From NCBI RefSeq assembly GCF_050920415.1, contig NZ_CP169309.1: a stretch of 64,000 nt of DNA. One strand, 5' to 3'. Shown in pieces: positions 5,880 through 6,517 of the stretch (position 1 is the stretch's first letter; every line of letters begins with the position of its first letter). The position numbers were made by a program, and so were the translations under genes. This DNA is from Escherichia coli. GTDB taxonomy: Bacteria; Pseudomonadota; Gammaproteobacteria; Enterobacterales; Enterobacteriaceae. Below the pieces are notes generated by a model that was not told where the DNA came from, did no database searches, and was given only the letters and a program-made list of their open reading frames with translations.

Positions 5880-6262
5880 TCTTCTGAATCACCGGGCGAC
5901 AAAATATAACTGAGTTACAAATAAGTACCAGTCGAATGAGTATTATATTAAGAATTTTTGAGTATCGCTGATACCACCAGAAAGCAATGCTAGCGCAATA
6001 TTATAGGGCCAGCAATTGAGATTATTAGCAAAAGCATGTTAAGAATTAATCACCGAATTTATATATTAATTATAGTAAGGCAATGAGCTATTTTTGATAG
6101 TAAAAATAAAACAAGTTTATTTGATATATTAAATGAAAAAATTAATCTTGATGGCAGTCTGATTATTGGTGAAGTTTATAGGTCATTTTTTTTCGCCAGC
6201 GGTTAAAGGAATAGAATCGTCGTATAAAAAAAGGGTGTTTTGGGGCGTGTAAAACAACATCT

Positions 6263-6409
6263 TCACCTTAATGGCGATACAGTTGGCTGAGAGTCAGCAG
6301 GGGGGCAAATCACCTGCAAATAAACACGGCGCATGCTGGCGCGAATATCGCGGATGCGTTCGAGGACAGAAGAACCGACAGACGGATTCTTCAGTCGCTC
6401 ATCGTCCAT
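6263..6409 (-). pseudogene. Possible gene remnant in the selC 3' flank (frame open upstream toward selC, no full-length start)
   Basis: Manual translation of minus strand: ...[68 protein letters not shown]. The frame stays open upstream to about 6500; the annotated coordinates run from the internal ATG at 6409 to the stop. Family assignment uncertain. Confidence 0.3.
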
Positions 6410-6517
6410 CACAAAACCTTTGATCAGGTATTCCTGAAGCCGATTAAATATTGAGCAGTAGAAAATATCTGGATTGACTGTATTACAAGGGATTGGAAAA
6501 CGTCAGTAGAGGCAAAT

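Follow-up and report, generated by a model that had tools for sequence, protein, structure and literature searches.

The stretch of DNA analysed here, hereafter the window, comprises 64,000 nucleotides of Escherichia coli contig NZ_CP169309.1, and the locus under study is the spacer between the tRNA gene selC and its 3' neighbour setC (Table 1). ARAGORN detected a single tRNA gene in the first 12 kb of the window, that for tRNA-Sec, which is 100% identical to selC of K-12 and whose 3' end at 6518 serves selC-specific integrases as att target. The limits of the spacer are exactly 5880-6517, since setC occupies 4695-5879 and the tRNA-Sec gene 6518-6612. The original prediction, made from the sequence alone, had described a non-coding stretch of about 640 bp, AT-rich over roughly 5900-6240; ARAGORN, Rfam and the gene calls gave a length of 638 bp, and the GC content was found to drop to 0.18-0.35 across approximately 5850-6200. 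For comparison, the GC content of setC is 0.456 and that of the whole window 0.486 (0.49 rounded).

Directly after selC the window reads ATTTGCC and K-12 reads AAATGCC. The complete 15-nt flank is ATTTGCCTCTACTGA in the window and AAATGCCTCTCCTGA in K-12 and ST131, and it stays beside selC even where the locus of enterocyte effacement (LEE) is present. Rfam returned tRNA-Sec only for positions 5600-6900, promoter- and terminator-like motifs in the spacer were not above shuffled expectation, and a repeat scan of the spacer gave trivial repeats only, none above chance. The AT-rich part (5880-6262) contains no open reading frame (ORF) of more than 40 codons and no Rfam match, and it shows no similarity to the intact-rhuM allele described below or to the selC flanks of the 120 loci listed from other species.

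Table 1. Features of the selC-setC region, in window coordinates.
Feature	Position	Strand	Basis or remark
selC, tRNA-Sec gene, anticodon TCA	6518-6612	-	ARAGORN; Rfam RF01852, 83.8 bits
15-nt flank directly 3' of selC	6503-6517	-	Alignments; common to all Escherichia alleles
Former rhuM leader (untranslated upstream), ~60 nt	6441-6502	-	Homology to Escherichia sp. E1V33
rhuM pseudogene fragment (K-12 yicT/b4653)	6278-6439	-	PF13310, BLASTP, DNA alignments, PGAP
Open-frame tail to TGA stop	6263-6277	-	Without clear rhuM homology
AT-rich non-coding DNA 5' of setC	5880-6262		GC 0.313; breakpoints from allele alignments
setC, 394 aa, MFS transporter (RefSeq name setC)	4695-5879	-	Next gene 3' of selC
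setC and its 3' flank, remainder of the 1.7-kb block	4614-5879	-	Allele alignments

Between positions of about 2000 and 50000 the window differs from the genome of MFDS1022581 by one base. Beside yicS, the window carries the gene of an intact 165-aa TPR protein (1538-2035, minus strand; Pfam TPR_3, E=2.3e-17). RefSeq names its counterpart in MFDS1022581 a CesD/SycD/LcrH-family type III secretion chaperone, split by an IS2 element that the window lacks. In the genomes 2011C_4037 and Z142-6, nepI, instead of the TPR gene, follows yicS.

The minus-strand translation of 6200-6520 was examined, and a frame was found to be open from 6502 to a TGA at 6263-6265; the peptide quoted in the original prediction was reproduced exactly. 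The sole start candidates inside this frame are a GTG and an ATG at 6412 and 6409, and the frame is therefore without a full-length start, as had been claimed. Its 66-aa translation was matched by the Pfam profile PF13310 (Virulence_RhuM) with E=3e-13 and 50.1 bits, above the gathering cut-off of 33.7 bits, with coverage of profile positions 50-98 of 252 only. BLASTP against the intact 345-aa RhuM of E. coli aligned residues 121-185 (E=3e-23) with gaps of 8 and 3 residues. The fragment thus keeps codons 121-185 with in-frame deletions of 24 and 9 nt, and the N-terminal 120 codons and the C-terminal ~160 codons are missing. The likeness to RhuM, which had been suggested as a vague one, is on these alignment statistics not a matter of chance. 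A complete domain in an intact ORF with a start is absent; an intact homologue stands at the equivalent position in other strains, the frame varies among strains and its divergence is near neutral (see below). The sequence is a pseudogene fragment and no functional member of the RhuM family. Among the RhuM genes collected, it is nearest to the Escherichia alleles (ST131, E. albertii), which is consistent with decay in place. NCBIfam holds no model for RhuM and none for its 165-aa neighbour in ST131, and no RhuM homologue was found by sequence among solved structures (best E=0.63).

A resemblance to DinD had been suggested along with that to RhuM and was rejected: DinD of the window (24270-25094) has a Bro-N domain only and gave E=0.21 against RhuM. 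In that pairwise alignment, DinD residues 122-137 (EAFRQLREDEKRLFLR) recall a motif at RhuM residues 155-170 (ERIRDIRASERRVYLR), a short likeness that may be due to chance or to a very remote shared module.

The relic is already known, as it is annotated both in K-12 and in RefSeq. In MFDS1022581, whose spacer is 100% identical, PGAP records a rhuM pseudogene corresponding to window positions 6278-6439 and described as 'missing N-terminus and C-terminus'. K-12 MG1655 carries the pseudogene yicT (b4653; 3836425-3836556), labelled 'rhuM: RhuM family protein, incomplete' by PGAP, between selC and setC, and its translation, MDDERLKNPPVGSS...QPTV, is the same remnant as that of the window. The two copies agree in position, strand, truncation boundaries and in the 24-nt and 9-nt deletions; the window copy is without the TAA that the K-12 lineage has just upstream of the ATG, and it differs from the 48-codon frame of yicT by two amino acids (P10S and H23R). 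Finding the same DNA in K-12 as ordinary intergenic sequence free of protein similarity had been named as the outcome that would refute the proposed scar. The result is divided: the 638 bp are indeed present there at about 96% identity, but protein similarity exists and is annotated as a pseudogene. Literature searches for yicT, b4653 or rhuM with selC returned unrelated matches only.

The distribution of the spacer was assessed by megablast against 5426 complete E. coli genomes. A match was found in 4526 of them, and at least 80% of the spacer was covered in 3617, nearly always at 93-97% identity. All listed matches covering the fragment are annotated 'rhuM: RhuM family protein', or 'virulence RhuM family protein' if the gene is intact, and some genomes match only ~70 nt of the spacer, within an intact 'virulence RhuM family protein' gene. 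The intact-rhuM allele was itself covered to at least 80% in 845/5426 genomes, and its match reaches tRNA-Sec in the rows sampled.

Alleles were compared by sensitive blastn and MAFFT alignments. In ST131 the gene order is yicJ, selC, 52 nt, rhuM (345 aa, WP_001280586.1), a gene for a hypothetical protein of 165 aa, and yicL, with setC absent. This intact rhuM has the same position and strand as the fragment of the window, and the intact genes of ST131, LF82 and Z0117EC0054 share with the window the locus, the strand and the 15-nt selC flank. RhuM of the ST131 type matches PF13310 over its full length (E=4.5e-118), whereas the window has a fragment only; 3' of the intact gene lie a degenerate selC-end repeat and the 165-aa gene, compared with AT-rich DNA and setC in the window.

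Common to the window and the ST131 allele are selC and the following 15 nt (6503-6517). Window positions 6311-6440 correspond to codons 121-171 of rhuM in ST131 and Z0117EC0054, with 119/130 aligned bases identical (91.5%) and the 24-nt in-frame deletion; beyond the further 9-nt deletion, rhuM is still recognisable, though less clearly, as far as ~6280 (residue 185). With tblastn a weak extension to 6221 is possible, and the right-hand replacement junction lies somewhere in ~6221-6280. The alleles become alignable again at 4613, which is 29 nt 5' of the yicL start codon. As there is no match between ~6280 and 4613, approximately 1.7 kb of AT-rich DNA and setC (4614 to ~6280) replaces the ST131 sequence, which at this place is also ~1.7 kb long and consists of the 3' half of rhuM, the att-like repeat and the 165-aa gene.

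The left-hand boundary was evaluated with Escherichia sp. E1V33, in which positions 6-66 downstream of selC match the window leader at 79.7% and are followed by the rhuM ATG and ~15 codons. From this leader homology, the left-hand event in the window can be read as one deletion of ~400 nt, from the leader to codon 120. The region +1 to +1570 after selC in E1V33 constitutes a third allele, with a K-12-like leader and ~15 rhuM codons; the rhuM start is followed there by an uncharacterised 417-aa ORF on the opposite strand and then by yicL, and setC is absent. Within the spacer, the leader (6441-6502) is the part most diverged from K-12 (93.2% identity). Positions 6461-6481 agree with a segment inside rhuM at 17/21 bases, a match that was rejected as chance, because E1V33 shows these positions to be leader sequence. 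A breakpoint shared with the rhuM stub of Klebsiella sp. BIGb0407 was also considered and found unsupported, the boundaries of that stub (residues 113-137) being different. Since the window and K-12 share all boundaries despite ~4% divergence of the spacer, the events are old and precede the split of the two lineages.

To describe variation within the fragment, nine E. coli strains were compared. The K-12 lineage has a TAA in the fragment frame, a 1-nt length change in a C-run alters the C-terminal third of the frame in 4/9 strains, a 1-nt insertion lies upstream in 2/9, and one strain (EC17CM2) has a 15-nt deletion. Several amino-acid replacements occur among the nine strains, no less often than silent changes. 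The remnant differs from K-12 by 3.4%, the AT-rich part by 3.7% and the stretch beside selC by 6.8%, and third codon positions of the neighbouring genes diverge by 5.3-8.4% (yicL, setC, yicJ); the spacer is therefore close to neutral. Divergence slightly below that of third positions is usual for intergenic DNA and does not prove absence of constraint, which is still possible, for example through regulation of setC. As the frame is broken differently among strains and diverges about neutrally, the fragment is considered non-functional.

For a comparison beyond E. coli, one genome per species was scanned with the last 31 nt of selC, and at least 120 loci matched, of which the 120 listed form an unrooted sample; first features were counted in the 108 listed loci with at least 600 nt downstream of selC. 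A P4-type integrase came first in 36/108, RhuM, intact or as a stub, in 18/108 (13 of them within 850 nt), an integrase followed by RhuM in one (E. albertii), and neither of the two in 53/108. The statement in the original prediction that selC is a frequent integration site is in keeping with these 36 loci, with LEE/SpLE4 in O157:H7 Sakai and with satellites in two E. coli strains.

All RhuM matches at selC in the 120 listed loci lie on the selC strand. Genera in which RhuM comes first include Morganella, Providencia, Erwinia, Hafnia, Enterobacter, Atlantibacter, Kosakonia and Pseudescherichia, and the small genes behind the selC-adjacent RhuM vary; in S. arizonae, no RhuM was found within 3.2 kb downstream of selC. 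The stub of Klebsiella sp. BIGb0407 mentioned above, at +96 to +170 after selC (WATQTSQEYLIKGFVMDD), is independent, and stubs with yet other boundaries were seen in two Atlantibacter loci, Erwinia rhapontici, Providencia rettgeri and Kosakonia cowanii. Four listed loci come from metagenome-assembled genomes labelled Bacillota, Sphingobacterium, Clostridiales and Streptococcus. They are short contigs in which RhuM or a P4-type integrase, 78-88% identical to E. coli proteins, comes after an exact enterobacterial selC 3' end, and are probably mis-binned enterobacterial contigs.

Elements now present at selC were inspected in three E. coli genomes. In Z0117EC0054, selC is followed by a P4-like satellite (integrase, helicase and DUF2290 pair, psu, delta, primase), then by an attR copy of the selC end, and after this by the original flank and the intact rhuM. 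The DEAD/DEAH helicase and DUF2290 pair is placed between the integrase and psu (11067-15001 of the extracted locus L005); this interval is the usual cargo slot of P4-like satellites, and the pair may be a defence system. EC17CM2 has a similar P4-like satellite ahead of the stub and setC. Present-day elements thus insert ahead of the relic, which consequently lies outside them. In O157:H7 Sakai, LEE/SpLE4 (annotated 4580990-4624439) follows selC and the 15-nt flank; the stub and the AT-rich DNA are deleted, as is most of setC, of which the last 175 nt are left at the far end of the LEE. Two details were seen at 49365-49891 and 11055-11111 of the extracted locus L132. The right junction of LEE/SpLE4 falls within setC, of which the 175 nt and a 61-nt internal piece are left, and a second selC-end-like copy occurs ~5.1 kb into SpLE4, after the integrase module. 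This suggests that the annotated SpLE4 combines a small integrative unit with the LEE core.

Repeats of the selC end were also searched for around rhuM. ST131 and Z0117EC0054 carry a degenerate repeat of the selC end and flank (CGACTCCTGTGAT----CGCCAAAATGCCTCT) ~110 nt after the rhuM stop, and Pseudescherichia vulneris has a similar selC-end repeat after rhuM. In the window the selC 3' end is present once only when up to 3 mismatches are allowed, and a downstream search within 5 edits found no further copy. A tblastn search with a selC-specific P4-type integrase gave no match in the spacer (best E=0.93) or in the rest of the window. Of the marks of an integrated element, the spacer therefore has a deviant base composition and a patchy distribution, and it is without att repeat and integrase.

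Taking these observations together, the selC-proximal part of the spacer is very probably a non-functional internal fragment of a rhuM gene that formerly lay next to selC and was destroyed by at least two rearrangements, including replacement by the setC block. The ancestor of the setC-carrying E. coli lineages would have had rhuM directly downstream of selC and on the same strand. A first event, the deletion of ~400 nt comprising part of the leader and codons 1-120, would have fused the leader to codon 121, and in a second event 1.7 kb of AT-rich DNA and the setB-like setC would have taken the place of rhuM from codon ~186 onwards and of the gene behind it. The small in-frame losses of 24 nt and 9 nt would then have followed and, later, strain-specific stops and frameshifts. 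The fragment would now drift neutrally without a function of its own, the AT-rich part being no more than the setC upstream region. The homology, the breakpoints, the match in position to the intact gene, the frequencies among genomes and the lack of coding constraint are shown by the data. The direction from intact gene to fragment, the order of the events and the acquisition of setC from outside along with its AT-rich flank are what we infer from the alleles; the direction is not rooted on a tree, and in principle the two alleles, with setC and with intact rhuM, could be of equal age.

Three other explanations of the spacer were weighed. That it is ordinary conserved backbone DNA with a frame open by chance is hardly credible: such a reading would draw on the finding that K-12 and two thirds of the complete E. 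coli genomes carry the spacer, with 93-97% identity, but the Pfam and BLASTP statistics exclude chance, the DNA is 91.5% identical to an intact gene over the aligned bases, and neither other Escherichia species nor ST131-type strains have the region. It also appears very improbable that the fragment has been kept for an acquired function, be it as a small protein of 48 codons, as a regulatory RNA or as a promoter or H-NS silencing region of setC. An identical truncated structure is retained across lineages that are ~4% diverged, an ORF of 48 codons starting at the ATG at 6409 is open in the window, in K-12 and in some other strains, and the divergence of the remnant is at the low end for the locus. 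These points are offset by the C-run frameshifts in 4/9 strains, the 15-nt deletion and the upstream 1-nt insertions, by amino-acid replacements as frequent as silent ones, by the lack of an Rfam match and of promoter or terminator signals above shuffled expectation, and by the genomes that do without the relic: O157 Sakai has lost the region with nothing put in its place, and the 845 genomes with intact rhuM lack it.

The third explanation, which extends the scar suggested in the original prediction, is that the whole spacer is the scar of an integrase-bearing island (LEE-, SPI-3- or P4-like) lost from selC, with rhuM as its last cargo. We regard this as unlikely; it concerns the deeper origin of rhuM and is compatible with the pseudogene explanation. 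The gene was first named in SPI-3 of Salmonella, which lies at selC, and many elements use selC as their att site; the intact rhuM of ST131 and Z0117EC0054 has selC on one side and the degenerate selC-end repeat on the other, with a similar repeat in P. vulneris. An arrival of the ancestral rhuM by integration is only hinted at by this degenerate repeat in ST131 and P. vulneris; most species with a selC-adjacent rhuM have neither an att repeat nor an integrase nearby. The window, too, shows neither a second selC 3' end nor similarity to an integrase, and the relic lies outside the attR of present-day islands or is deleted by them, as by the LEE in Sakai. The comparison with the LEE that had been proposed for the spacer gave matches to selC, the 15-nt flank and the setC tail only, so that the LEE shares with the spacer proper nothing past the flank; as it removes the stub, the AT-rich DNA and most of setC in Sakai, the spacer is no LEE scar.

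The idea of a scar was nevertheless partly right, because RhuM genes or stubs also follow selC in 18/108 listed loci of other Enterobacterales species. The spacer does contain a relic and is no pristine backbone, but it stems from a resident rhuM beside selC and not from the LEE, and no trace of an integrase or second att site was found in the window. The AT-rich part has to be kept apart from the rhuM relic: by the alignments, it belongs to the 1.7-kb setC block that replaced the 3' half of rhuM. Presumably it is the 5' region of setC and was acquired together with it. This block (AT-rich DNA and setC) is absent from ST131-type E. coli, from Escherichia sp. E1V33 and from the 120 loci listed from other species, none of which has SetC downstream of selC. 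The DNA of setC is ~72% identical to setB of E. coli and ~69% identical to setB of Salmonella, and setC looks like a setB-like gene acquired at the hotspot, and not like an ancestral backbone gene. A plasmid search with the block returned only mislabelled chromosomes and setB paralogues and so offered no sign of a plasmid origin.

Two further readings address the recurrence of rhuM at selC as a whole, and both seem improbable to us. In one, rhuM would be a long-standing first gene after selC across Enterobacterales, a candidate anti-phage gene (PDC-S05) at the mouth of the hotspot that would be truncated repeatedly as the adjacent cargo turns over; in the other, it would be an integrase-less, att-bounded cassette moved in trans by selC-specific integrases. 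If either were true, the yicT stub of E. coli would be one of many independent wrecks of a single conserved arrangement. Both readings draw on the 18/108 loci in which RhuM or a stub comes first, on the selC strand and with varying small genes behind it. That rhuM, whole or damaged, so often comes first after selC among the Enterobacterales loci compared is the one observation that seems mildly new. The fragment itself carries little weight as a discovery, since it is annotated in K-12 and RefSeq and is without function; it represents an ordinary relic of a gene, at a hotspot already known for islands, and no new feature.

Within Escherichia, the selC locus was found in at least five states: with intact rhuM; with an internal rhuM stub and setC; with a 5' rhuM stub and an unrelated gene; with a P4-like satellite ahead of rhuM or its stub; and with the LEE, the stub and most of setC being deleted. 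It is thus a tidy example of turnover at a tRNA-gene hotspot. The order in Z0117EC0054 (selC, P4-like satellite, attR, rhuM, att-like repeat) corresponds to tandem accretion with an integrase-less, att-bounded unit, an arrangement that we take to resemble the cis-mobilizable or CIME-type relics at tRNA hotspots. Unlike such relics, the window has no second att copy and no sign of past mobility of the unit.

The intact gene can in turn be compared with a candidate defence system. RhuM of ST131 was matched by the PADLOC models for PDC-S05 with E=2.8e-173 over residues 1-343. One member of this family that contains a Virulence_RhuM domain, and that came from a cold-seep microbe and not from E. 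coli, is reported to have reduced plating of T7 and T5 ~1000-fold and of T4 ~10-fold in E. coli B (preprint 10.1101/2024.09.26.614923). PDC-S05 is a candidate single-gene anti-phage defence, and the fragment in the window derives from such a gene. It retains 65/345 residues (~19%) in place of the full length and has no conserved frame, so that no defence function is expected of it. In this comparison setC, usually treated as a backbone gene of K-12, belongs to a block that took the place of part of a candidate anti-phage gene.
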